A DNA stretch of 53,122 nt, taken from the IMG/VR virus record IMGVR_UViG_3300017971_000065. One strand, 5' to 3'. Under the pieces are notes generated by a model. That model saw only the letters and a list, made by a program, of their open reading frames with translations, was not told the DNA's origin and searched no databases. Positions within the stretch are counted from its first letter, which is position 1. Every line of letters starts with the position of its first letter. The position numbers and the translations under genes are program-made. Positions 584 through 48,472 of the stretch are shown one piece after another. The stretch is from a virus.

Positions 584-584
584 A

Positions 585-1554: not shown

Positions 1555-1558
1555 GAAT

Positions 1559-2755: not shown

Positions 2756-2982
2756 AATTGACATTGAGAGCAGGGCCGATATTCATAAAGACAGACAGTG
2801 TGATGTCAGCGATACTGATGATACCATTATTGCTCATTGGTTTCTACCTATTAAGCTGTCTGGCCCTTTATGCTTGGACAGAATTGACTGGAACTCTTGA
2901 ATTCTCATGGATAAATGCGTTATGGACAATGATTATATTGGGTATCGTGTATTCGATATTCCACCATGAGACAGGTGAGTAA
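2752..2982 (+). CDS. Small membrane protein (76 aa, two hydrophobic helices)
   Basis: ATGA overlap with the upstream gene. Hydrophobic stretches LMIPLLLIGFYLLSCLALYAW and LWTMIILGIVYSIF. Confidence 0.55.
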   Translation: MKLTLRAGPIFIKTDSVMSAILMIPLLLIGFYLLSCLALYAWTELTGTLEFSWINALWTMIILGIVYSIFHHETGE

Positions 2983-3687
2983 TTGCAGACAGTGATCGTG
3001 AACCCAGACAAGTTGAAACAACCAAGACGGCCTGGAAGCGGTAAGCGTAAGCAACCGTCAAGAAAGTCGGCAAAGCATGGATACAAGTACGAGTCCGAAA
3101 CATTGAAATCTCTGGAAAGACTTCAGTTGGACTATCCAGCGTTGTGGTACTATAAGATGGTAGATACTCACTCATACGACTGGATGAAATCAGTGTTGAG
3201 AGAACTTGAACAACTACTGGAACAGATGAATGACTTACCATACATAAGAAAACGGTTCCATGACAAACTGGCGAGGATTAAGGAGATACTCAACGTCCTT
3301 CAAAAGTTTGTCGTGCCAAAAGTTCCAGCAGACATATTCGTTCTTTACAACATGAGGGCTCTTGTCATAGAGTGCAAGAGTTCTCAACGAAAGGGAGGGT
3401 TCGTTCCCTTCGAACCGTATGTAAGTGAACATCAGATCGATGCCGGTCGTCAGATCGAGGGAGCTGGTGTTCCTTACTATTTTTTCATTTGTGATAGAGT
3501 ATATAAAGGAAAGAACAGGACGTTTATGATTAGATATCCAGACTTTATCAAGATGAGAAAATGGTGTGACCGTGAGAATAGGAGAACCATTCCATGGTCA
3601 CGCATGGAAAAATATGCAGAAGCGATTCTGCCAAAACAGAAAGGTCAAGTATTCGACTTACAGCCGATAATGAAACATCTGGAATGA
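2983..3687 (+). CDS. PD-(D/E)XK nuclease, Holliday-junction resolvase (Hjc)/VRR-NUC-like, with basic N-terminal tail
   Basis: HGYKYE...PADIFVL...LVIECKSS matches the E...D...ExK nuclease core. Start codon uncertain (TTG 2983 or GTG 2992). Confidence 0.55.
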   Translation: MQTVIVNPDKLKQPRRPGSGKRKQPSRKSAKHGYKYESETLKSLERLQLDYPALWYYKMVDTHSYDWMKSVLRELEQLLEQMNDLPYIRKRFHDKLARIKEILNVLQKFVVPKVPADIFVLYNMRALVIECKSSQRKGGFVPFEPYVSEHQIDAGRQIEGAGVPYYFFICDRVYKGKNRTFMIRYPDFIKMRKWCDRENRRTIPWSRMEKYAEAILPKQKGQVFDLQPIMKHLE

Positions 3688-3762
3688 CAGGAAATCGTAT
3701 AGGTCAAGAAGAACTTGGGCTAGTTGTTAGAGTGCAACCCATCCCTTCTTATGGCTGGCACT

Positions 3763-3772
3763 TTTTTAAATT
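3763..3772 (+). promoter_or_regulatory. TATA-box-like element upstream of PCNA paralogue 2
   Basis: TTTTTAAATT about 60 nt upstream of ATG 3828, in a 140-nt gap with no convincing ORF. Confidence 0.3.
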
Positions 3773-3827
3773 GGCCTATGCGACCTGAATTCACAGCGAT
3801 ATAATGTCGTTGTGAGGAGCTGATGTT

Positions 3828-4622
3828 ATGGCTAAAAAGACAAAGACGCAGAAAAAGATTGAGGCCGAGATGAAACCTGGCAAGGTGTCATTCAAGACAA
3901 CTTGCGGTCAGTTGAAAGCATTGACATCTCTCACAATGATCATCACAAAGAAAGCGGTGCTCGAATTCACACCGTCTGGACTTGAGGTGAGTGTTGTAGA
4001 TGAGAAGGTAACTCATGCTGGACACATCACCCTTACTGCCGAAGGAATGGAAGGTTACGGACTCGGAAAGAACAAGACCGAATTCCTTTGTGGTATCGAT
4101 TTGAAACATCTGCATGAATTTCTCGGCAATCTCAATGTGAAAGATGAGGTAGAGTGTGACTTCGACGAGGAAAAGATGAGGGCAACATTCAAGTCTGGCA
4201 ACCTGTCCAGAACGGTAGAACTGTTGTTCTCATACGATGACTGGAAAACATGGAGAAAGACCGACCTGAAAATACAGTATCAACACGAGTTCAAGGACAT
4301 CGACAGCAAGGACATACTGATCGGTATGAAGGGAGTCGAGGATGTCAATGATGACGAGGTCATCTTTGAGTCAAACAAGAGTGGCTTCTTGATAATGGCA
4401 GAGGATAGCGGTGACGACATCGAAGTTCCTTTCGGAAAGAAGGGAAAGACAAAGCGGATCAAGTCGAAGTTCAGAGTCGGCCCAGTCAAGGCGATTGTGA
4501 AAGAGATGAACGGAAAAGTGACAGTATCGATGGGCGAACACATCCCAATCGAGTTCTCATGGTTTCCAGCAGAGAACATGGGTGCAACCTTCATGGTGGC
4601 CCCATTGACAAAGGGTGATTGA
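3828..4622 (+). CDS. pcn: PCNA-like sliding clamp (paralogue 2, divergent)
   Basis: 264 aa, the typical PCNA length. GAGGAGC SD upstream. Two-domain pattern, and the C-terminus ATFMVAPLTKGD parallels the LAPRIE end of paralogue 1. Confidence 0.7.
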   Translation: MAKKTKTQKKIEAEMKPGKVSFKTTCGQLKALTSLTMIITKKAVLEFTPSGLEVSVVDEKVTHAGHITLTAEGMEGYGLGKNKTEFLCGIDLKHLHEFLGNLNVKDEVECDFDEEKMRATFKSGNLSRTVELLFSYDDWKTWRKTDLKIQYQHEFKDIDSKDILIGMKGVEDVNDDEVIFESNKSGFLIMAEDSGDDIEVPFGKKGKTKRIKSKFRVGPVKAIVKEMNGKVTVSMGEHIPIEFSWFPAENMGATFMVAPLTKGD

Positions 4623-4624
4623 AT

Positions 4625-4765
4625 ATGGAACATATTATTGTAAAAGTAAAACTGGCAGATTGGCAAGTGGAGAAACTAAAAAATGGCGGTTGTACAGTAA
4701 TTGAGCAACGAGATATAATCGAGCAATCACAACCCAGTAAAGCCAAGAAGGAGGAGAGCGCATGA
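4625..4765 (+). CDS. Small hypothetical protein (46 aa, below ORF-track cutoff)
   Basis: ATG 3 nt after the PCNA-2 stop; MEHIIVKVKLADWQVEKLKNGG... Confidence 0.35.
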   Translation: MEHIIVKVKLADWQVEKLKNGGCTVIEQRDIIEQSQPSKAKKEESA

Positions 4766-4781
4766 TTTCGGATGGGGGTGA

Positions 4782-5099
4782 TTGAAAGTGCCCAGTATGT
4801 CTGAATTTGTGGTAGTTGAATGTCCGAAACACGGGATGGAATTTCCAGAAAAAGAATGCTTTGCTTGTGAGGAATATAACCACACGCTGAAATCATGTGG
4901 GTATAATAAATCACCCAAGGAAGGTGTCAGAATGATAAAGAGACGTTTCCAATGCGAGTCCAGAACTTGCAGATTGGACATGAACGATGACAGTTTTCAT
5001 GGATGTGTTGTTGAAGTCCCAGAGAACCATGTGGCAATACCAATAGTCTGTCCATTGTACGAGGGAAAGGTCATTCAAACATTTGTGGAGCTGAAGTGA
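4782..5099 (+). CDS. Cys-rich hypothetical protein
   Basis: GGGGGTGAT SD at 4772-4780 favours a GTG 4788 or ATG 4797 start; contains CPKHG...CFACEE. Confidence 0.55.
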   Translation: MKVPSMSEFVVVECPKHGMEFPEKECFACEEYNHTLKSCGYNKSPKEGVRMIKRRFQCESRTCRLDMNDDSFHGCVVEVPENHVAIPIVCPLYEGKVIQTFVELK

Positions 5100-5305
5100 T
5101 GACATCAGAGCCACAGGAATTCATCAGGCCACAAAGGAAGGGACGAATGACAGGCGTTGATATCCAAATAGACGGTGAGACTTGGACAGACACTCTACGA
5201 AAGGCAGAAATTCCTTTGGACACTCCTCTCGATGAACTTCGTATCAAACGGTATCCGTGTAAGGGTGGCAGAATAATCCTCAAGGTCAAAAGGATACAAG
5301 CGTAG
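5096..5305 (+). CDS. Hypothetical protein (69 aa)
   Basis: GTGATG-type overlap with the upstream stop; co-directional. Confidence 0.5.
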   Translation: MMTSEPQEFIRPQRKGRMTGVDIQIDGETWTDTLRKAEIPLDTPLDELRIKRYPCKGGRIILKVKRIQA

Positions 5306-5360
5306 GCGTGAGCAGAGAAGCGCGTAGGAAGGCATATAAGAACGATTTTGTATAGGAGAC

Positions 5361-5600
5361 ATGATTATGAACGGTGAGAACATGAATGATGACGCATTCA
5401 AGATGACTATAATATTATCGAGAGAGAAGTGTTTGCCAGTCAGCTTGATACTGAAAGAGAAGTGTGACATCGAGAACATAATGATAGAGGAAGTGAAAGG
5501 CAAGAAAATTTGTGATCGATGTGGTGGCTCTGGCAATGAACTCTTGAGACATTATAAAAAATGTGAGAATTGTTCAGGGACAGGAATGGTGAGCAAATGA
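5361..5600 (+). CDS. Small protein with DnaJ-type CxxCxGxG zinc finger
   Basis: CDRCGGSG...CENCSGTG; GGAG SD upstream. Confidence 0.55.
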   Translation: MIMNGENMNDDAFKMTIILSREKCLPVSLILKEKCDIENIMIEEVKGKKICDRCGGSGNELLRHYKKCENCSGTGMVSK

Positions 5601-5896
5601 CGATATGTCCAGAATGTCTTGATGGACGGGACAACTACGGAAAGAAAGGCTATTGTGAGATATGCAACAAGCGGATAACGAGAAAGATGAGGGTGAGGCC
5701 ACCTCTGTTCGGCAGATTCCACAAGCACAAGTGGGAACTCATAGCCTCTGGCAATATCAAGACACCTCAAGGCCATTTCACTATCGGCCTGTTCAAATGT
5801 AAAAAATGTCAGGCGAGGGATTGGAACTTGACCGGGTTCATAGAACAGGTAGAGAACTTCGAGAGGGCCCACAGCATAGCACAGAGCAAACGATAG
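5597..5896 (+). CDS. Zinc-ribbon protein (99 aa)
   Basis: ATGA overlap at 5597-5600; MTICPECLDG...CEICNK...CKKCQ. Confidence 0.55.
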   Translation: MTICPECLDGRDNYGKKGYCEICNKRITRKMRVRPPLFGRFHKHKWELIASGNIKTPQGHFTIGLFKCKKCQARDWNLTGFIEQVENFERAHSIAQSKR

Positions 5897-5971
5897 GGCT
5901 TTATCTCGGAACGAGACAGACTCTTGAACCTTTTCAGAAAACCCCTATCAGAAACACCCTTTAAGGCACTT

Positions 5972-7030
5972 TTACGACGATGAGGGCAATAGGAGGGCAA
6001 CCTCTGTTCCGAAAACAGGAATGTCTTTCTCTATTCTGGTCGATATAGAAAATCCCTTTCCAAACCGTATGTCAATGTCTTGGGCTCTATGGAGTCCAGA
6101 CACTATATTTTTTGAATTTTGGATTTCGACAATCGTGAGGCCAGGTACAGCGTCTATCATTTCAAGAGCCGTAATCTCCGTATTGATTGTTTTGAACTTG
6201 TTCTCCTCAACTTCTACTCTGGCTTTCTCATAACATTCGGCTGCACTCAACAGAGAGTCATCATAGATCGGATTGCCAGCAAATGTCCCATCGACAGCCA
6301 TTCTATGTGCTGAAGTGTATGTGGCTCTGACACCATCTTTACCAATGACAGTCTGCTTATTGATCACACCATAGGTCTTTGCCTTCGGTTCTCCTTTTAT
6401 GAGATTGTCACCACCAGTCAGAGTGAACCATGAATTTGCCTCTACAAGTTCAGGTTCTTTTCTGAAGAACAGCTTGTCGCCTTCCTCATAGAGAAAGTAG
6501 TACAACGGCCTCTTACCAAACTCTGAATCGTCATAAGCCATATCACGAAGTTGCTTTATGGCTGAATAGACAATTATTCCACGACCATATCTGAAATCAT
6601 CTGGTACAAAAACAGATGGATTTGTTCCATTGAATCGTGTAGTGAATGAGATGTCAAGATTGTCGATAAGTGAATATATGGCCTGTGAGACTTCAAGACC
6701 ATCCAGATTACTGTATTCATCTATTATGACAGAGTCCTTATTAGCTGAATAGAGCCGACCATGAAGTGCCAGTTGTTTTGTCCTCTCTCCCAATTCAGAT
6801 GTCACGAAACCAGTGAATGTTGGCTTGTCTGGAAGTTCATCAAGCCCGAGATAAATCTTTATGACATCGAGAGATGAGAAGTACTCGAACAATCGGCCAT
6901 TTGGATTTGGATAGACTAGTGAAGCTGTCCAGATTTCTCTCTGTTTCTTTATGGTTCCAGAGTTAGGGTTATCGAAGCCACTATCATTCACGGTGACTTC
7001 GATCTTGGGTTTTCTCAATAATCGTACCAT
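5972..7030 (-). CDS. Putative tail tip / baseplate hub protein (last gene of the tail module)
   Basis: 352 aa, second gene downstream of the tape measure; assignment by position only. Confidence 0.45.
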   Translation of the reverse strand: MVRLLRKPKIEVTVNDSGFDNPNSGTIKKQREIWTASLVYPNPNGRLFEYFSSLDVIKIYLGLDELPDKPTFTGFVTSELGERTKQLALHGRLYSANKDSVIIDEYSNLDGLEVSQAIYSLIDNLDISFTTRFNGTNPSVFVPDDFRYGRGIIVYSAIKQLRDMAYDDSEFGKRPLYYFLYEEGDKLFFRKEPELVEANSWFTLTGGDNLIKGEPKAKTYGVINKQTVIGKDGVRATYTSAHRMAVDGTFAGNPIYDDSLLSAAECYEKARVEVEENKFKTINTEITALEMIDAVPGLTIVEIQNSKNIVSGLHRAQDIDIRFGKGFSISTRIEKDIPVFGTEVALLLPSSS

Positions 7031-7039
7031 GTGAACACC

Positions 7040-8911
7040 TCACACTTCCGACCTCTCGAACACCCTGAACCCAAACGACCAAGTCACATAGTTTCTCGTT
7101 GTCTGTGTAATGCGATATCCAGTAATCCTTCCATCAAGCCTAACGGTTATCCCATCCTTCTCGTCAATGATCTCAATTCTTGTGTATTCCTGAGTTTCCT
7201 GACGTTCTCTTATCTTGTCGATATCGTCTTTGAAGTCCTGTCTGGCAGATAGTCCATTGATTGTATAGACTCTGTTTCTTATTGCATATGGTAGGTCAAT
7301 CTCTCCAACACCGTCCATGATTGATAGTTCTTCAGCGTCGGAAGCCCTGCTCTCCTCTCTCATGCTAACAGTGGTGTTCGGCCCGAACTCCAAGAGCGTT
7401 GGATCTCCGCTTATGACTGTGACATCTTCTCCTTCTCCAACGCCCTGCGTATATGTCTCACCAGTATCGGTGAATATTCTCAACCTGATTTCCTGACTTG
7501 AAGTTGGAACGACATCGAATACAGGCCCCTCGTCAATATGCCATGAACCATTCACATAGTAGTCATACTGGCTTATCAAAGCATCGGAGGCCACTGGTTG
7601 AGATTTCGCTCCAATACATCTTACACTCTCACCAGATACAACTTCAAGAGGTCTGACGATTAGAATTGCCTCTGGCGTTGTATCATCCACCGTCTTTGTA
7701 CAGACAGTATCGAGGTCTGACCAGTAACCATCGGAACTTTCAAGTCTGCCTTTTATGACTTTGGCCCCTGTTTCAGAATATCTGTGATATATTGTGAACG
7801 ATGTCTTTTCAATATCGCTCTCTATCCAGTATCCATCAACTGCGTCACCCCATTCTACATAGGCTCTCTTGCATGGAATTGTTGAGTTCAATGTTATCGA
7901 TACCAGTTCTCCGACATCAACATTCTCAGTTGCTTCTGAATGTGTGCAATCTGGTCTTATGAATGTGACAACACCTGAATATGTGGCATCATCACCAGTA
8001 TTCTCATTGTCCTCTGCCGTCACCATGTAGTAGTAGTTCTGATTTTCGGACAGAGCAGATGTGTCAATGTAGAAGTTTGTGGACGGGTCTGTTATCGTTG
8101 CTATCAGCGTGGCACTACTCGGAACTGTAAATGGTGTTGTCTTACGATAGACTTTGTAAGCTGTAAAGCCAGCATCACTAACCTTTCCCCAATCGAGTCT
8201 TGGTTGTTCTGGATTGTCTGGATTTGGTTTGATCGTCAGGAACGAGTCCTCATCTATGAACGCTTCCGGTGGATAGTCACGATAGATGATACGAAGTACT
8301 GGACGATATGATGGTGTAGCATTTTCTCTCGAACTGAATGATACGCCTTTGTTCTGAAGGTCAACGAGGTTACGAAGATAGAACGACTTCTTCTGTCCGA
8401 ACCCGAGAACCTTCGTCAAGTCAAACTCGACCCATGAACCTATCGTTGGCCCTGCCTGAACGGACTCGATGGCGACAGCGTCCTCGGCTGCAAGAGAGTC
8501 GTGATCTGTGGAATTAGCCCAGATAAGAGCATCATCTCTCTTGTCCCAGTTACAGTATCCAGCACCACCAGTTTGTGTTCCTTCTTGCCACAAAGAGTCA
8601 TCTTCCGACAGAGGAAATATACCAACACCAGTCGGCGTAGCACTTCCTGCTGTCTGAACTCTCAATCTCAATAGGATTTGCTGGATTTCATCTGCTTCTG
8701 GCAAGTCTCTGGAATATGGCATCGTGACTTCTATAATCGCCATCTCTCTGGAATACGGATCTGTGTCATACTCATTTACAGCCAGGAGAGAACTGTGACC
8801 ATAGTTAGATGTTCTCATATCTTTATTTACCCACGAATCCTTTGATACACCGATCAGGTCAGAGTCGTAGTCCTGATAATCAACAGTCACAAGCTTGAAT
8901 TTATATGCCAT
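7040..8911 (-). CDS. Distal tail protein with FN3/Ig-like domains
   Basis: ATG 8911 lies 2 nt after the tape-measure stop. The segment DWGKVSDAGFTAYKVYRKT...YYYMVTAEDNEN looks like fibronectin type III. Confidence 0.55.
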   Translation of the reverse strand: MAYKFKLVTVDYQDYDSDLIGVSKDSWVNKDMRTSNYGHSSLLAVNEYDTDPYSREMAIIEVTMPYSRDLPEADEIQQILLRLRVQTAGSATPTGVGIFPLSEDDSLWQEGTQTGGAGYCNWDKRDDALIWANSTDHDSLAAEDAVAIESVQAGPTIGSWVEFDLTKVLGFGQKKSFYLRNLVDLQNKGVSFSSRENATPSYRPVLRIIYRDYPPEAFIDEDSFLTIKPNPDNPEQPRLDWGKVSDAGFTAYKVYRKTTPFTVPSSATLIATITDPSTNFYIDTSALSENQNYYYMVTAEDNENTGDDATYSGVVTFIRPDCTHSEATENVDVGELVSITLNSTIPCKRAYVEWGDAVDGYWIESDIEKTSFTIYHRYSETGAKVIKGRLESSDGYWSDLDTVCTKTVDDTTPEAILIVRPLEVVSGESVRCIGAKSQPVASDALISQYDYYVNGSWHIDEGPVFDVVPTSSQEIRLRIFTDTGETYTQGVGEGEDVTVISGDPTLLEFGPNTTVSMREESRASDAEELSIMDGVGEIDLPYAIRNRVYTINGLSARQDFKDDIDKIRERQETQEYTRIEIIDEKDGITVRLDGRITGYRITQTTRNYVTWSFGFRVFERSEV

Positions 8912-22057: not shown

Positions 22058-22100
22058 TTTCTCATTCTCCTTATACGTTTTTTCATATTTTCTTTCCCAA

Positions 22101-22132
22101 AATAAGTAAGTAAGTATCAATACTTACTTATT
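22101..22132. repeat. Palindrome AATAAGTAAGTA-(8 nt)-TACTTACTTATT; part of a motif shared with 48411-48430
   Basis: 12-nt perfect inverted repeat read directly. On the minus strand it reads TTTCCATTAATAAGTAAGTA. Confidence 0.8.
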
Positions 22133-22195
22133 AATGGAAAGATTTTGGGGGGAAGGGCGTAAGGACAGAGTCATCTGCCCTTCCCATTTCCAAGC

Positions 22196-22424: not shown

Positions 22425-22465
22425 GCAATAAAGATAAAAGGCTTACACCGATTACTCAGTGTAAG
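22425..22465 (-). terminator. Hairpin plus T-rich tract overlapping the capsid gene stop (possible attenuator/terminator)
   Basis: Minus-strand CTTACAC-(10 nt)-GTGTAAG followed by CCTTTTATCTTTATT. Confidence 0.35.
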
Positions 22466-23531
22466 CGTTTATCTGTCCGTTGATGAGTATCCTCATCCAA
22501 CGGGGCCTGATGACGGCGGGATAGGATTTCTCCCATGCCTGAACCCAGACATCGTCTGGCCTCTTCTGGAGCTTGTCGGTTCTTGTGTTCATTTTCCTCT
22601 TGTAAACCATTGTGCCGAACTTGGGCCCTTTCAGAAGTGCAATCGGGACGTTGTCATAGGTTGTGTCAGTGGTCAGGACATCCATTCCGGCTGCCTTTCC
22701 AATCTGACCGTTCATGATCCGCTGATCACCCATTGCCGAAGCGTGGATGAAGCGGTCATCCTTCAGGAGCATCCCCTCGGTTTCCTCGTCAACGACGACA
22801 GTATCGAAGGAGATGAACTCCTTCCTCCCAGCTGTCCGAAGGTTAACGAGGTCGTTGTACGAGACTACTCCCTCATCAACTGCCAGAACGTATTGTCTTT
22901 CGTCGCACCAGACGTATGTAATGGTCGAAGCACCGGGATCACCGCTGAACACTATGTGTCCAGTACGGTAATCCAGATTGTCCCACGTAACTGGGTTGGT
23001 CGTTGTGATCGAGACTACACCGAGAATAGCCTCGTCTGGGCCACCAGAGTTTGTTCCGTGAGACAAGTCGAATTCGGTTGCTCCACCGGCGATCGCTTCG
23101 TCCTCGACAAGAGCCGCATTGAGAATTTCGTTCCAGGCTCTTGCGTCTGCCTTGATGGCCATTGCGTCTGCAATGCCTTCGAGTTGCTCTTTGATCAAGT
23201 CAAAGTCAGCGTCATCGATTGCCTGTCCTGTGATCTCATCCCCACCACCGAAGTAAGTGGGTGTGACATCGAAGTTGTCCCATCTGGGTGAGACAGAAAT
23301 ATCTGGAACGTCATTGCCCTCGTCGAAGTCCTCTGCCACCATCCTGTTGACCTCGCGCCTCAAGGTCAGCTTGTCGTGTCCCTTCTGAACGGTTTTCTCA
23401 CCGAGCAGTTGAAGCGAGACCATCTTGGGCATGGCGAGTTTGTTGATGATCTTGTCCAACTGAGGCTTGATACCGCTATCCAGAACATCTGTGCTGTCCG
23501 TGAACTCATCATATTCTTTCATGTTTTTCAC
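22452..23531 (-). CDS. Major capsid protein (HK97-fold candidate)
   Basis: 359 aa, immediately downstream of the acidic scaffold gene in the order terminase-portal-protease-scaffold-capsid. Confidence 0.7.
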   Translation of the reverse strand: MKNMKEYDEFTDSTDVLDSGIKPQLDKIINKLAMPKMVSLQLLGEKTVQKGHDKLTLRREVNRMVAEDFDEGNDVPDISVSPRWDNFDVTPTYFGGGDEITGQAIDDADFDLIKEQLEGIADAMAIKADARAWNEILNAALVEDEAIAGGATEFDLSHGTNSGGPDEAILGVVSITTTNPVTWDNLDYRTGHIVFSGDPGASTITYVWCDERQYVLAVDEGVVSYNDLVNLRTAGRKEFISFDTVVVDEETEGMLLKDDRFIHASAMGDQRIMNGQIGKAAGMDVLTTDTTYDNVPIALLKGPKFGTMVYKRKMNTRTDKLQKRPDDVWVQAWEKSYPAVIRPRWMRILINGQINAYTE

Positions 23532-23565: not shown

Positions 23566-24126
23566 TTAAAGTTTCCCTGCCTCCCGAGACTTTTTCATGT
23601 CGACCATGACACGCCTGATGTCATCGTCAACCCCACTGTGTTCAGCTTCCTCTTTGGTGGACTTTTCCTCAGTCTCTACGGACTTGGCCTTGGCAGAGTC
23701 CTTCTCGTCTTTTTTCTCCTCCTCCTTCTCCTCGTCCTTCTTCTCCTCGTCAGGCTTCTCTGGTTCCTCGTCTGGTTTCTTCTCCTCTTGTGACTTCTCC
23801 ACATCGGCTAACTTGGATTCGAGAGCGGCGACCTTGTCTTTAAGGTCATGGTTCTCTTTCTCAAGAGTAACCACACGTTCAAAAGCACCCGCCAGTTTTG
23901 AATAGTCATAGGTACTCGTCTTACCGATCAGACCTCCCTTCGGGTCGTCTATCTTGAAGTTCTCCATGTAGCCCTTCGGGAAAACAGTCAGACCGGACTC
24001 TGTGAAGAACACCCCGCCGATTTCAGAAGGCTCAAACGACTGAACCGTGAGTTCAGCCTTCGCCTCCTGCTTCGGCTCAGTCTGTTCCTCAAGTTCCTCA
24101 ACAACAATTTTGTCTTTCTGTTCCAT
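23566..24126 (-). CDS. Scaffolding protein
   Basis: Coiled-coil, highly acidic, with an E/K/D low-complexity stretch (EEKKPDEEPEKPDEEKKDEEKEEEKKDEKD); sits between the protease-containing gene and the capsid gene. Confidence 0.65.
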   Translation of the reverse strand: MEQKDKIVVEELEEQTEPKQEAKAELTVQSFEPSEIGGVFFTESGLTVFPKGYMENFKIDDPKGGLIGKTSTYDYSKLAGAFERVVTLEKENHDLKDKVAALESKLADVEKSQEEKKPDEEPEKPDEEKKDEEKEEEKKDEKDSAKAKSVETEEKSTKEEAEHSGVDDDIRRVMVDMKKSREAGKL

Positions 24127-24212: not shown

Positions 24213-27197
24213 TTACTTGCAGACTCGTTTTCTGGTCTTTGGATCTGTGTAACACCGTTCATGGATATCGGCTGCTGGTAGTTGAGGAGAAGTCGTCAAT
24301 GCACCGCCAACGGCATCTATGTCATAGGCCCATTTCTTTCCGTCAGAACGGACTTCGAATTCCCTGAACAGTTCGGCAGAGATGTTATTGATGTTCTCAT
24401 TTAATATTTCATTGACAGCGACAGGGTGAGTGATTATGGCTTTGTACATGACCGCACCCTTTCCGTGATCGTGGTTGATTGGGTCTATCCATGTGACATC
24501 GGCATCCCACCAGAGGTCAGATAGAATTCCAGCCTTCAGGTATTCTGTCTTGTCGTGATAGAAGTTGAAATAAACGAGAGACTCGCCTACTCTTGGCTTC
24601 AGCTTCATTTTCATTAGTTCAGGGTCATCGTAGTTCATTTCTTTGTGTTCGCCTCTGTGAAAAAAGACACCAGAAATCTCAACGGAGAATGGGTTGTCAT
24701 CGTATCTCTTGACATTGTCCATCGAGAAATAGACATCGATCAATGACGAATGCTCTGACTCCTGTTTAGGTTTTTTTTTATCGGATTGTCTTTCGAGGAT
24801 TGAACGTAGATTGGCAACTATCTGATCTCTCTGCTCTCTTGGAATTGGATTTCCATCCTTGAGTTTGACATGGGAGACTCTGGCTATCGCATTGCGAAGG
24901 TGAGGCAGGTCGATGTTGCCTCTCTCGTCTTTGTATGGAAGGTGTCGGAGAGTTCGGGGAACGGTCTTGCCCTGTTCGTCCTTCTTTCCACCAGACTCGA
25001 CTAGTGCGAAGGCAGAGTCGGGAAGGTCGTTGATGTATTTGGTATCCCAGACTTCATGGAGTCTGAATACAACGCCTTTGTGAGAGTGATCACCAGCTGA
25101 GGAACGGATATGGCTTCCAGTTGAACCAGATAGTCTGGCATGGAATTCAACGCTCTCCATGAGCTCGTTCTCGTCCTTTGCCTCTGTAATCTCGATCAAT
25201 TTCATGTGTTCTGTCATGCCAACTACGTACTCAAGTGCCTGAAGTCTCTCATGCAGAGGTTTGTCCTTGACACATTGACCATCAATCCATCTCAAATCGA
25301 ACACGGTTGAATACATTCCAGTGTCATTGGACTTGATCTTTCGGCCAAGATACTTGATGACAGGTTCCTCACCATAGAACTTTCCTTTGCGGTATCCTTG
25401 CGCCCAACCAGTGATGAAAGCGTCGATTGTGAAGTTATGTTCTATTCCTGCCAGTTCTTTTATCAAGACTGGGAACTTGACAGAGCAATCTACTTCGTTC
25501 TCTCCGTCTATCGCATGGATGGTGACTTCATCCCCTCTCTTTCTGATGACGCAATGCAGACCATCTGGCATTTCGTGGACTATGGCCGGGAACGTGAACG
25601 ATTTGTTTATCTCGTTAATCAGGGTATCTGGCGTGTAGATGTTGTTATCGTATTCCTCTATTTCAAATTCGTCAATGGAATAGACACCTTCATGTTTCAT
25701 CGGGAAGTTCGATACGAGTGGCCAGTTAGCGGTTGTCTTTTTGTCGCCTTTCTTGAGTGATGGGATGGAACGAGGTGAAGTTACCTTCTGGACATGGAAT
25801 CCAGCAGACTTCATTTTCTTGATCCATTCAGGCTCGTCGCCTATGGAACAGATGAACTTGCCTTTGATATCCGACAGTATGTCGATGAATTCATCGAGGT
25901 CAACCTGTCCGATCTTGAATGACGCAGCCCTCTTGTCGCCAGACTGGTAATAGGGCGGGTCGATGTAAAAGAACGTGTCTTGGCCATCATGTCTTTCTAT
26001 CGAGTCCCTGAAGTCCTCTCTGGTTATCTCCGCGTTCTTCATTCTATCACGGATACGTTCAAAACGCTTTGGCTGATTGAGAGTGCAAGTGTGACCTTCG
26101 TCAGAGCTGTCGAATGACTTGCCCATCGAACCGAATGAGAATGTGGTCTTGTACAAGAACCAGTGAAGCCAATCCACCTTTGACGATGGTGCTGTCATGT
26201 TAACGATTTTCTTGTGGTATTTGGCAGAGCCAGTCCAGTTCTTCTTGACAAGTGTTCTGATTTCGGCATCGGTGATCGTTTTGAGAGATTTCAATGCCCT
26301 GACGTATTCTGGGTTGAGGTCGTTCAGGATTTCGGGGCCATCGGTTGGGTTCTTGGAAAAGAATATCGTTGCCGAACCGCAGAACGGTTCAACGAACTTC
26401 GAGTGCTTCGGAATGAGTGAGATAATGCGTCTGGCTTGGAGCATTTGACCTGCTGGATGTCCAAAGGCTCTGGCAACAGCGAATTCATCGTATTCCATGT
26501 CTTTTCTCTGGCCAGGAACGGCAGAGCCAGACTTCTCCTTTCCAATGCCAGGTCTATCAAGCCGTCTCATATCTCCACCACATTCAGGGCATTTAATCTC
26601 CTCACAGTGTTTATCAGAGTCCATGATATATTCACAGGTAAGACATTCGCATTTGTACATCTCGAAGTCTTTCGGTGGGCCAGGTTGGGGTGGAATTCCG
26701 ACAGGTGGTTCTTGAGGCGGTATCTTAACACCTCTGAGTGGCCTACGGAATTCGTGAGTGTGTCCATCAGTCTCTTGAATCTCCCACTCGACTATCTTGT
26801 GCCTATGGCCCAAGTCCTTTGAAGTCCATCCGTTGCCTTCGTCATCAACTTCAATCGCATGGTCATGTCCTACTTTCACTGTCGTTCTAATCTCCTCAAA
26901 GACTTCATGAGCCTCAAAATACGGATGTCTGCCCTGTTCTACAAGTGAAGTGTTGCCGACGTAGTTTGAAATGTATTTCTCATCGACAGACTTCACCTTC
27001 ACCCATGCATTATCCTTCACTTTGTGTTCTCTGTTCCAGATAGACCAGGCTACGGCTTCAGGAGATCTGACCTTGCGCTTCTCTCTCTTTATAGCGTCAC
27101 GGATCTCGGCCCACCTGTTCGCTTGGGCGAGTGTCAGAGGAATTCCTCTGTGCTTCTTTATGCTATCAGGCACTTCTGTCAAATTTGACCAGGGCAT
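24213..27197 (-). CDS. Multidomain virion-assembly fusion protein: ChaB-like N-terminus, His-rich region, zinc ribbon, Dam-type N6-adenine DNA methyltransferase, degenerate ATP-dependent-ligase-like domain, prohead-protease-like C-terminus
   Basis: FVEPFCGSA (motif I) and FFYIDPPYY (motif IV) mark a D12-class methyltransferase. VHEMPDGLHCVIRK / FTIDAFITGW / VFDLRWIDG...PLHERL follow ligase motifs I/III/IIIa but lack the catalytic Lys. FYHDK...ISAELF...GGALTTSPQLPAA resembles an S78-type prohead protease. Located between portal and scaffold. Confidence 0.7.
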   Translation of the reverse strand: MPWSNLTEVPDSIKKHRGIPLTLAQANRWAEIRDAIKREKRKVRSPEAVAWSIWNREHKVKDNAWVKVKSVDEKYISNYVGNTSLVEQGRHPYFEAHEVFEEIRTTVKVGHDHAIEVDDEGNGWTSKDLGHRHKIVEWEIQETDGHTHEFRRPLRGVKIPPQEPPVGIPPQPGPPKDFEMYKCECLTCEYIMDSDKHCEEIKCPECGGDMRRLDRPGIGKEKSGSAVPGQRKDMEYDEFAVARAFGHPAGQMLQARRIISLIPKHSKFVEPFCGSATIFFSKNPTDGPEILNDLNPEYVRALKSLKTITDAEIRTLVKKNWTGSAKYHKKIVNMTAPSSKVDWLHWFLYKTTFSFGSMGKSFDSSDEGHTCTLNQPKRFERIRDRMKNAEITREDFRDSIERHDGQDTFFYIDPPYYQSGDKRAASFKIGQVDLDEFIDILSDIKGKFICSIGDEPEWIKKMKSAGFHVQKVTSPRSIPSLKKGDKKTTANWPLVSNFPMKHEGVYSIDEFEIEEYDNNIYTPDTLINEINKSFTFPAIVHEMPDGLHCVIRKRGDEVTIHAIDGENEVDCSVKFPVLIKELAGIEHNFTIDAFITGWAQGYRKGKFYGEEPVIKYLGRKIKSNDTGMYSTVFDLRWIDGQCVKDKPLHERLQALEYVVGMTEHMKLIEITEAKDENELMESVEFHARLSGSTGSHIRSSAGDHSHKGVVFRLHEVWDTKYINDLPDSAFALVESGGKKDEQGKTVPRTLRHLPYKDERGNIDLPHLRNAIARVSHVKLKDGNPIPREQRDQIVANLRSILERQSDKKKPKQESEHSSLIDVYFSMDNVKRYDDNPFSVEISGVFFHRGEHKEMNYDDPELMKMKLKPRVGESLVYFNFYHDKTEYLKAGILSDLWWDADVTWIDPINHDHGKGAVMYKAIITHPVAVNEILNENINNISAELFREFEVRSDGKKWAYDIDAVGGALTTSPQLPAADIHERCYTDPKTRKRVCK

Positions 27198-28481
27198 CTA
27201 TTCATCCTCCTGTTCGGGTACTTTTGGAAGTCTCGTAGGTGGTGGAGATGAACGAACGATGTTCAACGCCTCGTCCACGAGTTTTTGAATTTCAGGGTCA
27301 GTAGGATTTATCAATCCATCGACCTGTCCAAGCCGTCTTATCCGCATGACAAATTCCTTTGCGGCCTTCTCCGAGAGTTTACCATATGTGACCTTGAGTC
27401 CTTTCCAATCTATCTCTGCCGATTTGTTGTCTCTGCTCTCATTCCAGTTGATCACGTTCTTGACGATTTTCTCGATTTTCATCTTGCGCTGGAACGCTCT
27501 GAACTTGATTTCGAACCAGTCCAAGAGATACTCAAGAGTCGCTCTGTTCTCTCCGTCACCTGATTGAAGGAGAAGGGCTACTGGCGTTTGAAGGACTGCG
27601 GCCTGAAGCTTTGTAGTATAGATTAATTGATTAATGATTGTGTCTTTAATCTCTATCATTGGTGGCCATTGGACATTCATTTCAGAGGCAGGGACTACAA
27701 CGAAGTCCATGTCTGGATCAGCGAGGTCTTGTGCAAGTCGGATTGCTTTTGATTCGAGTTGGGCTGTTGCTGGATTGAGAACAGTTCCATAGTTGACGAT
27801 CGGCTTTTTCCATGCCATATCGTATGCTGTCTGTACTCTGGCCTGTTCCAAGTTCTCTTTCAGGGTCGAGTCCCTGTAAGCCTGTTCGACCATTCCAAGC
27901 CCGAGCTGAGTGTGAGTCACCTGAACCCATGGTCGCCAAGACATCTCCAAGTCTGGAATGTATTGAGCCTTCTGACCGCCTCTCGTTTCAAGTTCGTATG
28001 CCTTTGGTCTGCCGAGTCTATTCACAACCACAACATCGGAGCCAGGATATTTCTTGAGAAATCCGTTCATAATCTTTGCGTCAACGGTTAGAAAATCAGT
28101 GATGTGCTTTTTCTTTCCAAAGATATGTTCAAGCCACCAGTTACCGAATATACAAGTATGAAGTGGAAATTTCTCAACGGACTCCTCGTACAATGTCGTG
28201 TCCATGAACAACTCATCGATGAGGGCCTGGGTTTTCTCCTTGTCTGCATAGACTTTGTATCCAGCGTCCTCTATCAACATCTGCCATCCTATAATTCCTC
28301 CACCGAGGATAGGCTCGTCATAAAACATATTTTCCAGAAAGATTGGATCGACACGATCAGTATCGAGTTTAGAAGTCGGTGAAGTCTCAGTCTTTGCTTT
28401 CACCTTGCCACCGCGTGGCTCAAGTTCGTAATGAGCTTCCTGTTTTCCGAGACTTCGTATCTTGTCAATTATACTTGGCAT
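27198..28481 (-). CDS. Portal protein
   Basis: 427 aa, immediately downstream of the large terminase. Confidence 0.65.
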   Translation of the reverse strand: MPSIIDKIRSLGKQEAHYELEPRGGKVKAKTETSPTSKLDTDRVDPIFLENMFYDEPILGGGIIGWQMLIEDAGYKVYADKEKTQALIDELFMDTTLYEESVEKFPLHTCIFGNWWLEHIFGKKKHITDFLTVDAKIMNGFLKKYPGSDVVVVNRLGRPKAYELETRGGQKAQYIPDLEMSWRPWVQVTHTQLGLGMVEQAYRDSTLKENLEQARVQTAYDMAWKKPIVNYGTVLNPATAQLESKAIRLAQDLADPDMDFVVVPASEMNVQWPPMIEIKDTIINQLIYTTKLQAAVLQTPVALLLQSGDGENRATLEYLLDWFEIKFRAFQRKMKIEKIVKNVINWNESRDNKSAEIDWKGLKVTYGKLSEKAAKEFVMRIRRLGQVDGLINPTDPEIQKLVDEALNIVRSSPPPTRLPKVPEQEDE

Positions 28482-28485
28482 CTGT

Positions 28486-30000
28486 TCATCTCCCTTTAGG
28501 CCGGGTAAAGCCCTTCGGTTTTGTTGTTCGAGGCCGATTGATTTTTCTTGGAACGATAGGTTTCAGTTCTCCCGGTTCCAGAGAGTCTTGTGGCCTCGTA
28601 CAGAGGGCAAACCATGTCAGGGCGAGTGAGTCACCATAGTCGTCATGCTTGTTTCGTTGGTTTGGGGCTGCGACTTTAAATAGATTTCCAACCCATTTGG
28701 CCGTCAACGAGGTCATCTGATCCTCGAAGCGATAGCGTTCAACCCTGTCCACAGCTGGATAGGTGAAAGACTGGTTGACGATGGCCTTTCTCAATTCCTG
28801 CCACATGAATGACTGGATGTTCTTTTCCATCGGCACTCGTGCGACAGGGATGTGTTCAGGTAGGAAATCACTTATTCCTTCGCCGTGTAAAGTGTCTATG
28901 TTGACAACAAAGATATTGGGAAAGCCCTTTAAAATACTTTCGATGTCTGTTGCTTGAGTCTTGTAATCGTCACCTCTCCATTCTGCCCAGAGGTTGATGT
29001 GAGGCTTTCCGATCATGCTCATTATTGTCATCACTGTTGAATCATTTACTCTGGCTGGGTCAATCCCAACGACTACTGGCTCATCATTCTGAAGTATCAG
29101 GTTGCCATTCTGAAGTTCAACTAGTTCCTCAATGGTGCAGAAGTTGGACGATACTGACACCCATTCGAGCTCGTACTGAGTTTTGAAGTAGTCGGACTCT
29201 CGCCCATGCTTGTTCATTTCTTTCGTGACATAGATTTCATAATCTTTTGCGTACTTGTCCGTTGCCTCTCTAACGACATCTCGCCAATTGCTTACATAGA
29301 TATTCGGGCCAGCACGACTTGAGATGTTGTAGAAGTGACCGAGTCGTTCAGGTGTTGGATTTCCAGTAAGGATACGAGTTCCGTTTGTTGCGGCGCACAT
29401 CGGATAGATGGAATTGAGAAGTCTGGTGTCTGTGATGTTCTGCGCTTCTTCACAATAAGCGAGATCCAATGTCAATCGTTCTATCATGGCATTGATGGAC
29501 GCTGTTTCACAATATATACGTGTGCCATTTGACAGCCATAGTTCTTCGGAATTGTTCTTTATGGTCTTGATACCGAGATGGTCGTGCATGAAATGAGTGT
29601 CATGGAAGAACTTGTACATATTGAAGGCGTGGATGGCTTGAGAGTGTTTGGGGCCGAATATGCCTGCCTGAAAGCCGTCCTTCATCGGCTTGTATATTGT
29701 CGGAAGGGATGAAATGAAATGAAGTCCAGCACCAGGAAGTCCAGTGGTCTTTCCAGACTGTCTTGACAACATGACCACTATCTCAAGCCCGAGCCTGTTC
29801 ACGACTGATTCTACAACTCTCCATGCTGGTCGAATTTGATATGGTCTGAGTTTGATACGTCTCCTGCCAGTATATCCACCATAGATACATGAGGCAAGAG
29901 TGAAGTTGTACAAATCCTCTGGCTTCAGTTCCTCAACGATGAACGGCTCACCAGTGGAACACTTGTCGGCCATGTCCTGAAAGACTTCCTTATCTCCCAT
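28486..30000 (-). CDS. terL: Terminase large subunit
   Basis: Walker A VVMLSRQSGKTT, C-terminal RNaseH-like nuclease segment VVGIDPARVNDSTVMTIM, 504 aa. Confidence 0.85.
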   Translation of the reverse strand: MGDKEVFQDMADKCSTGEPFIVEELKPEDLYNFTLASCIYGGYTGRRRIKLRPYQIRPAWRVVESVVNRLGLEIVVMLSRQSGKTTGLPGAGLHFISSLPTIYKPMKDGFQAGIFGPKHSQAIHAFNMYKFFHDTHFMHDHLGIKTIKNNSEELWLSNGTRIYCETASINAMIERLTLDLAYCEEAQNITDTRLLNSIYPMCAATNGTRILTGNPTPERLGHFYNISSRAGPNIYVSNWRDVVREATDKYAKDYEIYVTKEMNKHGRESDYFKTQYELEWVSVSSNFCTIEELVELQNGNLILQNDEPVVVGIDPARVNDSTVMTIMSMIGKPHINLWAEWRGDDYKTQATDIESILKGFPNIFVVNIDTLHGEGISDFLPEHIPVARVPMEKNIQSFMWQELRKAIVNQSFTYPAVDRVERYRFEDQMTSLTAKWVGNLFKVAAPNQRNKHDDYGDSLALTWFALCTRPQDSLEPGELKPIVPRKINRPRTTKPKGFTRPKGR

Positions 30001-30001
30001 G

Positions 30002-30592
30002 TCACACCTTCACTAGTTCTTTCTCTTTCTTTTCGAGTTCGGCCTTGAGTTTCTCATCTTCTTTGTCCTTTTCCTTCTCTCTGGCGAATATCTTGTCGAG
30101 CGTTTTCCTTCTGTCCTCAACCTCTCTGTCATGAGACTTTTCAGAGGCCCAACCCATGAACCTTCCGAAAGCTACCATCTGGCCACCATTGATGGCAGTA
30201 ATGGCCTGGTAGTTTTTCATCAGGGTGTTGAGGGTATCTCCCTTCGTTCCAATAGTTGAGAAATCTCGTCTGGACAGTTCACGTTCCATCCTGTTGAGAA
30301 GTAATCTATTGAAGCGTAACTGGTCTTTCATTGCTTGATAGACCTTCCATTGCTCGTCGAAGTCCTTGACCTGATCCGCAAGTTCAAAGAAACAGAGTCC
30401 ACCTGGTGCTTTTTCGGCATAGGCGCAAGTGTTGATTGGACAGTCCTTGCACTTCATAAGAGCATATTCAGTCTCCCTGTTCAACTGCTCTCGATGTTTG
30501 TGACAGTATCCAGAGGAGTCATCAGTACGAAGTCTGCACCGTTCTCCTGTGTCATCTTTAATTCCAGCACATTGAACCTTGTTCTTATCCAT
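30002..30592 (-). CDS. Putative terminase small subunit
   Basis: Immediately upstream of terL. Cys-rich N-terminus and coiled-coil K/E-rich C-terminus. Assignment by position only. Confidence 0.4.
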   Translation of the reverse strand: MDKNKVQCAGIKDDTGERCRLRTDDSSGYCHKHREQLNRETEYALMKCKDCPINTCAYAEKAPGGLCFFELADQVKDFDEQWKVYQAMKDQLRFNRLLLNRMERELSRRDFSTIGTKGDTLNTLMKNYQAITAINGGQMVAFGRFMGWASEKSHDREVEDRRKTLDKIFAREKEKDKEDEKLKAELEKKEKELVKV

Positions 30593-30954: not shown

Positions 30955-31207
30955 TCCCCCATGTCATGAACCATCCTTCCTTACTGCCGATGTCCTCAAC
31001 GTGTTCCCTGAGTGCAATGTCGAAAGCACTGCCTCTCGATTGATTGTGAACGTCCAGTATCTTGTCGTGAAGCTCCTCTCGTTCAGAATCCATGTAACCC
31101 AAAGACACACCGATAGGCATCTCCTTACCTTTCTCGATCATGTGCCTGACCTTCTCAATGTATTCAGCCAGTACCTCATCATCAACGTCGATATCGGCTA
31201 TCTTCAT
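30938..31207 (-). CDS. Hypothetical protein (89 aa), first gene of the minus-strand operon
   Basis: AGGTGATGTGATG start context at 31207; TATA box at 31239-31250. Confidence 0.55.
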   Translation of the reverse strand: MKIADIDVDDEVLAEYIEKVRHMIEKGKEMPIGVSLGYMDSEREELHDKILDVHNQSRGSAFDIALREHVEDIGSKEGWFMTWGIADAE

Positions 31208-31238
31208 CACATCACCTTGAGGTACATTATGGAATGTC

Positions 31239-31250
31239 AAGTATTTAAAG
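31239..31250 (-). promoter_or_regulatory. Archaeal TATA-box promoter CTTTAAATACTT (minus strand) driving the packaging/head operon
   Basis: About 35-40 nt upstream of ATG 31207, at the edge of the AT-rich divergent region. Confidence 0.5.
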
Positions 31251-31441
31251 TTGATTATGGAAGGATACATTGACCAAAAATTGTAGATGTATTCGTTTAT
31301 ATGGATTTTTATATTCGGAATTTTATAAATCTATTCGTTTAAAATCATATATATAAAAGATCAAATATATATTAAGGCCATAATAATAAATATATATTCT
31401 ATATAGACCTATATAGGGATATATATTATATATAGAAAAGA

Positions 31442-31452
31442 TTTAAATACTT
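31442..31452 (+). promoter_or_regulatory. Archaeal TATA-box promoter TTTAAATACTT driving the plus-strand early block
   Basis: In the AT-rich divergent intergenic region 31208-31515; same core as the other promoters. Confidence 0.5.
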
Positions 31453-31515
31453 ATATGCCTTTCTTACTGGTGGAGATAAAAAATATCTCTGACAAAAAAA
31501 TCAGGAGGTAAAAAA

Positions 31516-31755
31516 ATGGATGATATAGATAATATCTTATCTCTAAACCTTCCATCCGAAAACTCGAACGCTGGACGATGGAAGGGGGGGAGATATGATA
31601 CCAGTAAGAAAGAAGAAATGCAGAAATGGAACAACCTTAAGAATATGGTAAGGTATCAAGGAGACAATAACGTTGAGGTAAAAAATCGACTTGACAATCT
31701 CGCCTCTGCAATCGACCAAGGAATACTGGAAATAAGAAAAGTCAAGACGAAGTAG
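31516..31755 (+). CDS. Hypothetical protein (79 aa)
   Basis: AGGAGGT SD 7 nt upstream. Confidence 0.6.
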   Translation: MDDIDNILSLNLPSENSNAGRWKGGRYDTSKKEEMQKWNNLKNMVRYQGDNNVEVKNRLDNLASAIDQGILEIRKVKTK

Positions 31756-31821
31756 TTTTGATTTTTCTCTCTTTATTTTTTTTACCTATTGATTAAAATC
31801 TATGATTAAAAATATTAATGG

Positions 31822-32169
31822 ATGGATGGATGTATGACTAAATATATTGATGGAGAATTATATAATCTTATCTATCTGACATTTAAATCGATGACGAGAG
31901 ATACAAATAGATTAGGAGGGTATTATTACATGGGACGGGATTCAGCGCGACTTCAGGAGGAAATGGAAATAAGTGTGATAATTGGGACAAGAGAGAGAAT
32001 GGCCAGAAAAGAGGATAACTCTTTCAGGAAGTCAATAAACTTCGGCAAGGTAACGTCAACGATCTTGTCCGACTGTAATCGGTGTGGACATGAGAATAAC
32101 CTGACAAAGAGTAAGTCAGTATTCTGTTCAAAATGTGGAGCACTATTGACCAATAGGAGATATGGATAG
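31822..32169 (+). CDS. Hypothetical protein with C-terminal zinc ribbon
   Basis: CNRCGH...CSKCG; start ATG 31822 or 31834. Confidence 0.5.
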   Translation: MDGCMTKYIDGELYNLIYLTFKSMTRDTNRLGGYYYMGRDSARLQEEMEISVIIGTRERMARKEDNSFRKSINFGKVTSTILSDCNRCGHENNLTKSKSVFCSKCGALLTNRRYG

Positions 32170-48392: not shown

Positions 48393-48410
48393 TCCCTTTT
48401 ACACAAATTC

Positions 48411-48450
48411 TTTCCATTGTTAAGTAAGTAAGTATAAGTAAGTAAGTAAG
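48411..48450 (+). repeat. TTTCCATTGTTAAGTAAGTA motif followed by a (TAAG)3-TA-(TAAG)4 microsatellite-like tract
   Basis: Read directly; 18 of 20 nt identical to the minus-strand sequence at 22140-22121. Confidence 0.8.
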
Positions 48451-48460
48451 AATAGAAAGA

Positions 48461-48472
48461 ATTTTATATAAT
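48461..48472 (+). promoter_or_regulatory. TATA-like element ATTTTATATAAT
   Basis: About 60-70 nt upstream of ATG 48534. Confidence 0.35.

Follow-up and report, generated by a model that had tools for sequence, protein, structure and literature searches.

Phage T4 packages internal proteins, together with Alt, in its head. In phage P1, the head contains about 40 copies of DarB, a 250-kDa protein whose gene, darB, adjoins the portal and protease genes (PMC9024508). Capsid-delivered multidomain proteins and MuF-fused effectors are an established theme, and include the polyvalent proteins – multidomain, DNA-modifying products encoded among virion genes and predicted to enter the host with the DNA (PMC5512222). 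The survey of polyvalent proteins uses the term ‘prohead protease’ once and ‘DNA ligase’ not at all (PMC5512222), and fusions of a protease to a capsid protein have been described in thaumarchaeal proviruses (PMC6563490). Here, we describe a gene in IMG/VR virus record IMGVR_UViG_3300017971_000065, a viral DNA of 53,122 nucleotides (nt) analysed over its whole length and referred to as the window, whose 994-amino acid (994-aa) product joins a DNA methyltransferase and a ligase-like domain to a C-terminal domain predicted to be a prohead protease.

The 994-aa multidomain head protein is encoded by a minus-strand open reading frame (ORF) with an ATG start, listed at 24213..27197 and with its stop codon at 24213-24215; all domains described below lie on this strand. 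A Shine-Dalgarno sequence (AGGAGG) is positioned 9 nt 5′ of the ATG, which itself abuts the TAG stop codon of the upstream 427-aa gene. Five modules are fused N-terminal to the protease: a small domain conserved at the N-terminus, a zinc ribbon preceded by a His-rich segment, the methyltransferase, a ligase domain predicted to be dead, and a module that we name for its LPDSAFA motif. A preliminary description, made from the sequence without database searches, had delimited the three main domains to within about 15 residues of the boundaries given here. By sequence comparison, the gene represents a reduced form within a widespread family, many members of which have an intact ligase.

The C-terminal protease domain

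The last 177 residues of the protein (aa 818-994; 24216..24746) are not matched by any Pfam model at E<=10. PF04586 (S78) is absent both for the domain and for all 38 members of the sequence family to which it belongs, and PF14550 (XkdF) does not match the query and reaches one of the 38 members weakly (E=0.032); single members also touch DUF2213, Peptidase_S78_2, and Mu-like_Pro weakly. Scans of the whole protein against PHROGs and NCBIfam returned no protease family, and profiles of the C-terminal domain built from 7 and from 38 sequences found no credible match in a sequence search of the PDB. Five columns of the 38-sequence alignment are invariant – Gly, His, Gly, Ser, and Pro – and the His and Ser, present in 38/38 sequences, are His881 (codon 24555-24557) and Ser940 (codon 24378-24380), or H64 and S123 of the domain. 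Two conserved cysteines form the C-terminal tail of the family.

The domain was assigned by structure and profile-profile comparison, with no direct family model. AlphaFold, supplied with the 38-sequence alignment, predicts it with a predicted local distance difference test score (pLDDT) of 92.3 and a predicted template-modelling score (pTM) of 0.85; the deep alignment was needed, and the seven close sequences by themselves gave an unusable model (pLDDT 46). Foldseek comparison with the PDB returned herpesvirus assemblins, from human cytomegalovirus, varicella-zoster virus, and herpes simplex virus 1, for all of the top 12 matches (best E=8.5e-3, probability 0.99). A similar search of BFVD gave 165 matches at E<=1e-3, and those among the best 50 that carry a name are for the most part labelled prohead protease, HK97-family protease, COG3740, or XkdF.

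In profile-profile comparison with hhalign, the family matches the XkdF-type C-termini of P0009 and P0012-P0016 (probability 89.9%, E=1.7e-6) with the His and Ser columns aligned; related proteins are cited here by P numbers, and related loci by L numbers. Against an eight-sequence HK97-family profile (HK97 gp4 and seven relatives) the probability is 37.9% (E=3.4e-4), and the His65, Ser114, and ‘PA’ motif columns of that profile align with the His, Ser, and PA of the family. As a calibration, the recognised XkdF family fares no better against the same HK97 profile (21%, E=1e-3). The single sequence of HK97 gp4 had no detectable relationship to the family profile (probability 0.2%). We conclude that the C-terminal domain is, by prediction, a prohead protease with the assemblin/HK97 fold and with His881 and Ser940 as its catalytic pair, and that it forms a separate sequence family outside the S78 and XkdF models with the same predicted fold and an apparently matching His/Ser register. 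Its initial designation as S78-protease-like is borne out by the AlphaFold and Foldseek comparisons and is consistent with the profile alignments, but is not recovered by PF04586.

None of the other six-frame ORFs of the window match the new-family or the XkdF profile, and PHROGs searches with ten other ORFs of the structural module found no protease. Bases 1-123 recur as an exact direct repeat at 53000-53122 (123 nt), which shows the window to be a complete genome, circular or terminally repeated, with 52,999 unique bases. As the only protease candidate in a complete genome, the 994-aa gene most likely provides the capsid-maturation protease. That members of this family behave as head proteases is suggested by the stand-alone, N-terminal, and scaffold-tailed (P0008) forms in which the domain occurs elsewhere.

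Passenger domains and their recurrence

The methyltransferase domain (aa 241-501; 25695..26477) passes the membership threshold for PF02086, with 55.3 bits (E=1e-14, aa 256-453) relative to a gathering score of 22. The same region matches phrog_56 (E=6.5e-39) and aligns in the PDB with the T4 Dam structure 1yfj (E=9e-6). Motif I (FVEPFCGSA, corresponding to FxGxG) at aa 268 is followed in the expected order by the catalytic motif IV (DPPY) at aa 413, and both FxGxG and DPPY are strictly conserved across P0001-P0008; the domain is intact-looking with regard to catalysis. The proposal of a D12-class N6-adenine methyltransferase is thereby upheld and class membership is established at the sequence level. 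The narrower ‘Dam-type’ label, with the GATC specificity that it implies, does not follow, the NCBIfam dam model TIGR00571 reaching 59.3 bits against a cut-off of 114.85.

Several palindromes, GATC among them, are strongly avoided across the genome, with observed/expected ratios of 0.20 for CTAG and 0.33 for CGCG, and no occurrences of ACATGT where 15.4 are expected. This avoidance suggests restriction pressure, and is notable in a genome that encodes a D12 methyltransferase.

The segment between the methyltransferase and the LPDSAFA module (aa 519-735; 24993..25643) is assigned as a degenerate ATP-dependent DNA ligase adenylation (nucleotidyltransferase) domain. Its match to PF01068 (aa 544-683; E=4.4e-5, 23.7 bits) falls just below the gathering score of 26.2, and five NCBIfam ligase models match the region weakly. 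The PF01068 threshold is passed by a number of relatives (P0006, P0007, P0012, P0016, P0027, P0028, P0031, and P0038-P0040), and the decisive evidence for the ligase fold is collinearity with such strongly scoring homologous ligases. The query region is collinear with the same region of P0006, P0007, P0012, and P0016 (PF01068 E=1e-11 to 5.5e-25), and its alignment with the intact ligases of P0007, P0012, P0038, and P0047 places motifs I, III, IIIa, IV, and V in register.

Compared with ATP-dependent DNA ligases having PF01068 and an OB fold, the query is without the Lys of motif I, the Glu of motif III, both Glu and Lys of motif IV, and the lysines of motif V, and has no OB domain. Motif I is EMPDGLH, with Met543 in place of the lysine of QKYDGMR (P0007) and PKYDGLR (P0012); motif III is IDAFITGW, with Phe in place of the Glu of DAELTGW; motif IV is GSTGSHIRS relative to GSEGAMIKS, such that EGxxxK becomes TGSHIR; and motif V (LxKxK) is without the lysines of the intact relatives. 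In place of the segment following the ligase domain of P0006 and P0007 there is the LPDSAFA module. The ligase domain of the query is predicted from these lost motif residues to be catalytically dead, in agreement with the degenerate ligase fold and the Lys-to-Met change of motif I noted in the preliminary description.

P0007, P0012, P0016, P0038, P0039, P0040, and P0047 have kept the lysine of motif I, and many relatives retain every ligase motif. In several lineages of the family, including the query clade, this lysine is replaced by Met, Val, Leu, Asn, Tyr, or Arg with the fold kept – e.g. Asn in P0006 and P0031, Tyr in P0027, Met in P0049, and Arg in P0052 – and the alignments indicate that ligase catalysis has been lost independently in several lineages. 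A LigD-type 3′-phosphoesterase was also suspected in the long relatives P0006 and P0007; a PDB search gave no support for it, and the sole signal for LigD_N is a weak match in P0009 (E=0.0012).

The conserved N-terminal domain (aa 1-70, MPWSNL...AVAWSIW...; 26988..27197), defined with an in-house hidden Markov model (HMM), also heads the otherwise unrelated fusion protein represented by P0018 and P0019 (E about 1e-22), and P0019 has a sub-threshold match to Mu-like_Pro (E=2.7e-5, 24.3 bits versus a gathering score of 25.2). This domain had been likened to ChaB (PF06150), a suggestion that we do not retain: the isolated N-terminus has no Pfam match at E<=10, and a profile of six N-termini matches no ChaB chain in the PDB. 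The His-rich segment with its GHDH..., GHRH..., and GHTH... repeats was read from the sequence at about aa 95-160 (26718..26915); the stretch noted previously is present at about aa 108-160. It has no Pfam family match and is variable, being missing in P0003, P0004, and P0005. The four-cysteine zinc ribbon that follows, also recognised previously (aa 182-216, CxC...C...CxxC; 26550..26654), matches the NCBIfam rubrerythrin-like domain NF033497 (E=7e-6) and DUF7129 (E=3e-4).

On the other side of the ligase-like domain, an in-house HMM delimits the LPDSAFA...RHLPY...LPHLRNAIARV module (aa 740-811; 24765..24980), which recurs beside the protease domain in P0002 (two copies), P0006, P0022, P0024-P0026, P0030, and P0043. 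DUF6582 was considered for this module and rejected, the sole Pfam signal being a weak match in P0002 (E=5e-4), with none in the query.

The extent of the family was determined by searching all 1.84 billion representatives with HMMER and a 7-sequence profile, and architectures were mapped with in-house HMMs and Pfam. The new protease family comprises 43 clusters at 50% identity, with protein lengths of 165-1782 aa and the protease domain at the extreme C-terminus in nearly all of them. A methyltransferase, a ligase, or both precede the protease in about 20 of the 43: methyltransferase, ligase, and protease are combined in P0001-P0007, P0027, P0031, and P0038, methyltransferase and protease in P0024, and ligase and protease in P0028, P0039, P0040, and P0046-P0052. 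The link of ligase to protease is at least as common as that of methyltransferase to protease. The protease stands alone in seven clusters of 165-320 aa (P0029, P0036, P0037, P0041, P0045, P0054, and P0059) and is at the N-terminus of a longer protein in P0056, P0058, P0062, and P0063; in P0008 a zinc ribbon, a methyltransferase, and a protease-like domain are followed by a coiled-coil scaffold-like tail.

D12 methyltransferases also precede an XkdF-type protease in P0009 and P0012-P0016, with ligases present as well in P0012 and P0016, the latter of which also has a second methyltransferase. The architectures indicate that linkage of methyltransferases, ligases, or both to a prohead protease is recurrent, and that it arose at least twice, with two protease families. 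The preliminary description knew of no earlier report of the domain combination, and we found no account of a methyltransferase/ligase–protease combination in the literature that was searched; tblastn searches of 50,697 GenBank phage records with the query, P0014, and P0012 likewise gave free-standing methyltransferases only and no such fusion. The combination is nonetheless no one-off, as its many uncultivated relatives attest.

Proposed packaging and ejection of the passenger domains

The reading that we favour, at a probability of roughly 0.55, is that the passenger domains are packaged by virtue of their fusion to the protease, that the linkers between them are cut, and that the passengers are ejected with the DNA. 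Packaging and ejection are proposed from gene position and from the examples of P1 DarB and the internal proteins of T4; the preliminary description likewise proposed that the fusion targets the passengers into the procapsid, to be ejected as anti-restriction cargo. The C-terminal protease would co-assemble with scaffold and capsid proteins within the procapsid, carrying the passengers along; Duda, Oh and Hendrix, writing in J Mol Biol in 2013, are reported to have found that a portion of the HK97 protease is enough to bring foreign proteins into proheads. Once activated, the protease would cut the scaffold and its own inter-domain linkers, for which acidic-then-aromatic/His motifs at aa ~238, ~510, and ~816 are candidate sites. 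The freed methyltransferase and ligase-like domains would be too large to exit the shell, would remain alongside the packaged DNA, and would pass with it into the next cell, where the methyltransferase could modify the incoming genome and the dead ligase domain might attach to nicks or DNA ends but leave them unsealed; the intact ligases of relatives could seal them.

Motifs in the linkers provide leads, rather than findings, as to where the protease may cut or dock. The sequence KQESEHSS directly before the protease domain (aa 810-817, 24747-24770) resembles KEEAEHSG towards the C-terminus of the scaffold-like protein (aa 160-167, 23626-23649), and the pattern E.[DE]H[SQ] occurs at these two places and nowhere else among all six-frame ORFs of the genome. 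Similarly, MEYDEFAV before the methyltransferase (aa 234-241, 26474-26497) resembles the capsid N-terminus MKEYDEF (about 23499-23522), and EY[DE]E[FYH] has the same two occurrences, and no others, in the six-frame ORFs. L008 and L005 keep both pairings, and L009 and L010 keep them in part. SIDEFEIEEY, a third motif of the acidic-then-aromatic kind, is located at the junction of the methyltransferase and the ligase-like domain. These shared motifs may be candidate protease cleavage or docking sites.

Several observations weigh against packaging and ejection. Prohead proteases usually destroy themselves as well as the scaffold, and the passengers could simply be digested. The linker patterns were defined after inspecting the sequences, and there are two further [DE][DE][FYH] matches inside the methyltransferase domain. 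TM-scores for the modelled protease are modest, at 0.3-0.4 against solved assemblins and 0.5-0.6 against predicted phage proteases. GATC is rarer than expected in the genome (observed/expected 0.42), and such strong avoidance would be unexpected if a GATC-specific methyltransferase reliably protected the DNA. Finally, the predicted loss of ligase activity here, together with repeated independent inactivation in the family, argues against a sealing role in this virus.

More tentatively, a broad group of uncultivated tailed viruses might load a toolkit of D12 methyltransferase and ATP-dependent ligase into the capsid through fusion to the prohead protease, such that virion-borne enzymes modify and repair, or circularise, the incoming genome before viral gene expression, with the ligase of the present virus acting as a non-catalytic binder of ends or nicks. 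We think this broader proposal possible rather than probable. We know of no tailed virus in which virion delivery of a DNA ligase has been shown.

The main rival to packaging and ejection is late co-expression without delivery, in which the full-length protein, or fragments set free in the cytoplasm, methylates progeny DNA before or during packaging, only the protease acts in the procapsid, and the rest of the protein is excluded or digested. This would fit with most phage Dam-like methyltransferases, which are free-standing and cytoplasmic, as are all of the tblastn matches in deposited phages; with S-adenosylmethionine being found in the cytoplasm and not inside the capsid; and with the head-module position, which gives late expression. 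Progeny DNA methylated before packaging would, moreover, already be protected in the next host. However, late co-expression leaves unexplained why so many lineages join a ligase – often an intact one – to the protease, why the partner is always a protease and no other late protein, and why the arrangement originated with two different protease families. Prohead proteases are also normally inactive until concentrated in the procapsid, which makes release of the passengers in the cytoplasm unlikely. On balance we regard this explanation as rather unlikely.

A less probable alternative, and one that we doubt, is that the passengers have become structural components of a core within the head or of an extended scaffold, where they influence head size or DNA organisation, with enzymatic activity secondary or lost. 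The repeated loss of ligase residues with the fold kept (in the query clade, P0006, P0027, P0031, P0049, and P0052) would then reflect selection for a non-catalytic role, and the modular and variable N-terminal half, with its His-rich segment, zinc ribbon, and second LPDSAFA module, and the coiled-coil scaffold-like tail after the protease-like domain of P0008 are in keeping with it. Strict conservation of the two methyltransferase motifs and retention of all ligase motifs by many relatives argue otherwise, as does the separate scaffold-like gene directly downstream. An artefactual joining of separate genes by a sequencing or assembly error is ruled out, whether as a frameshift or a chimera, because the identical 994-aa protein is found on 14 contigs assembled independently from three sources (JGI, ENA, and Logan; 11 of the 14 exceed 50 kb), the continuous reading frame is kept in P0002-P0005 (71-79% identity), in homologs at 44-79% identity overall, and in more distant representatives, and the ORF list of the window has no alternative-frame ORFs across the fusion; the description of a single 994-aa fusion gene accordingly stands.

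Genomic context and comparison with known systems

The gene lies in a minus-strand structural module that is flanked by plus-strand modules. In order of transcription the module encodes a 196-aa Cys-rich protein in the small-terminase position (30002-30592), the large terminase (28486-30000), the 427-aa protein in the portal position between the terminase and the 994-aa gene (27198..28481), the 994-aa protein, a 186-aa acidic scaffold-like protein directly downstream (23566..24126), and an HK97-like major capsid protein (22452..23531). The head-module placement given in the preliminary description is well founded, with support varying among the genes. The terminase call is solid (phrog_2 E=1.5e-23). 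The capsid call is moderate, from weak matches to Phage_capsid_4, phrog major-head, and N4-gp56, and the portal call comes from position and weak matches (PDB portal 11bp at E=0.033, and PF04860 at E=0.1 in one homolog). The Cys-rich protein has a weak N-terminal DUF5763-like match (E=1.2e-4), and the arrangement of its gene is also seen in L005.

The order of terminase, portal, fusion gene, scaffold-like, and capsid genes is shared with L001, L005, and L008. In L007 a Portal_Mu/MuF fusion gene is followed by that of the 817-aa P0008, and in L004 portal and MuF genes precede that of the XkdF-type 993-aa P0013 and then the capsid gene. Two other related loci have features of their own. L009 (1-2578), the locus with P0005, has an intein (Hint, Intein_splicing, and LAGLIDADG_3) within the gene at the large-terminase position, which lies two genes upstream of the fusion gene. 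In L006, a 136-kb relative with P0012, a sugar-modification block (213-7855) of glycosyltransferases, DegT aminotransferases, methyltransferases, and an acetyltransferase comes before the fusion gene.

The closest deposited terminases are those of Streptomyces and Bacillus phages at 29% identity, and are uninformative as to the host. There are no tRNA genes in the window, and scans of GTDB genomes and IMG/VR contigs with the protease domain gave no confirmed relative and no host assignment. The small domains of archaeal type (DUF7129, NF033497, and DUF5763) are hints as to the host, but not decisive ones.

Elsewhere in the genome, a repeat element built on TAAGTAAGTAAGTA is present at 22079-22146 (minus strand) and 48397-48464, with four matches where none are expected. 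Downstream of the capsid operon, its copy folds into a strong hairpin (-23 kcal/mol, z = -6.9), and the element is probably a terminator or regulatory element. A radical SAM protein is encoded at 640-1554 on the plus strand (PF04055 E=5e-9), followed by a double-zinc-ribbon protein at 1526-2224. GC and AT skew change sign at about 5900 and at about 31000-32000, matching the switches in coding strand.

For annotation, these comparisons define a prohead-protease family that is unmatched by Pfam, PHROGs, and NCBIfam, name its likely catalytic residues, and close a ‘missing protease’ gap for a group of highly divergent viral genomes. Repeated fusion to the one protein certain to be within the procapsid points to a general and genetically simple route for enzyme encapsidation, and the fusions point to virion-delivered DNA modification or repair as a counter-defence in tailed viruses. 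If cargo fused N-terminally to a prohead protease is indeed brought into the head, such fusion could be engineered as a route for packaging proteins into capsids. Repeated loss of ligase catalysis with the fold kept would be a clear case of an enzyme domain reused non-catalytically.

Among described proteases, those of the S78 (MEROPS; PF04586), XkdF (PF14550), and assemblin groups resemble the present family in the predicted fold, in an apparent His/Ser register, and in a gene position between portal and scaffold or capsid. They differ in that the query family is missed by the curated models, has a two-cysteine tail, and here carries about 820 aa of N-terminal passengers. Incorporation of a protease within a larger head protein also has precedents in tailed viruses, as protease-scaffold and protease-capsid fusions and the protease-MuF fusions of actinobacteriophages, and fusions of about 1000-1300 aa are found among the structural matches in BFVD, for example in Gordonia phage Pupper and Microbacterium phage OneinaGillian. 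The partners in the known fusions are morphogenetic (MuF, scaffold, or capsid), whereas those of the 994-aa protein are enzymes of DNA metabolism.

P1 DarB and the T4 internal proteins are alike in concept, as head-loaded enzymes delivered with the DNA. Such delivery is established in P1 and T4, and is proposed by analogy for the 994-aa protein. The P1 and T4 proteins are separate products with short N-terminal capsid-targeting sequences, whereas targeting of the 994-aa protein would be through covalent fusion to the protease.

The polyvalent proteins of phages and conjugative elements (Iyer et al. 2017) resemble the 994-aa protein, whose gene is in the head module, in having several effector domains in one polypeptide and genes placed among those for virion or transfer functions. 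Their methyltransferases are EcoKI/TaqI-like and accompanied by an SNF2 helicase, and zincin-like metallopeptidase and MuF domains recur in them, MuF being the head-associated one (PMC5512222). The methyltransferase of the 994-aa protein, in contrast, is of the D12 class and accompanied by an ATP-dependent ligase domain, and its carrier would be a prohead serine protease. Pfam and PHROGs searches of the 994-aa protein found none of the polyvalent hallmarks (zincin metallopeptidase, MuF, SNF2-methylase-LPD36, ART, or ArdC). Capsid-targeted effectors and protease fusions in general are known, and the fusion of a methyltransferase and a ligase to a prohead protease appears to be a new form of them.

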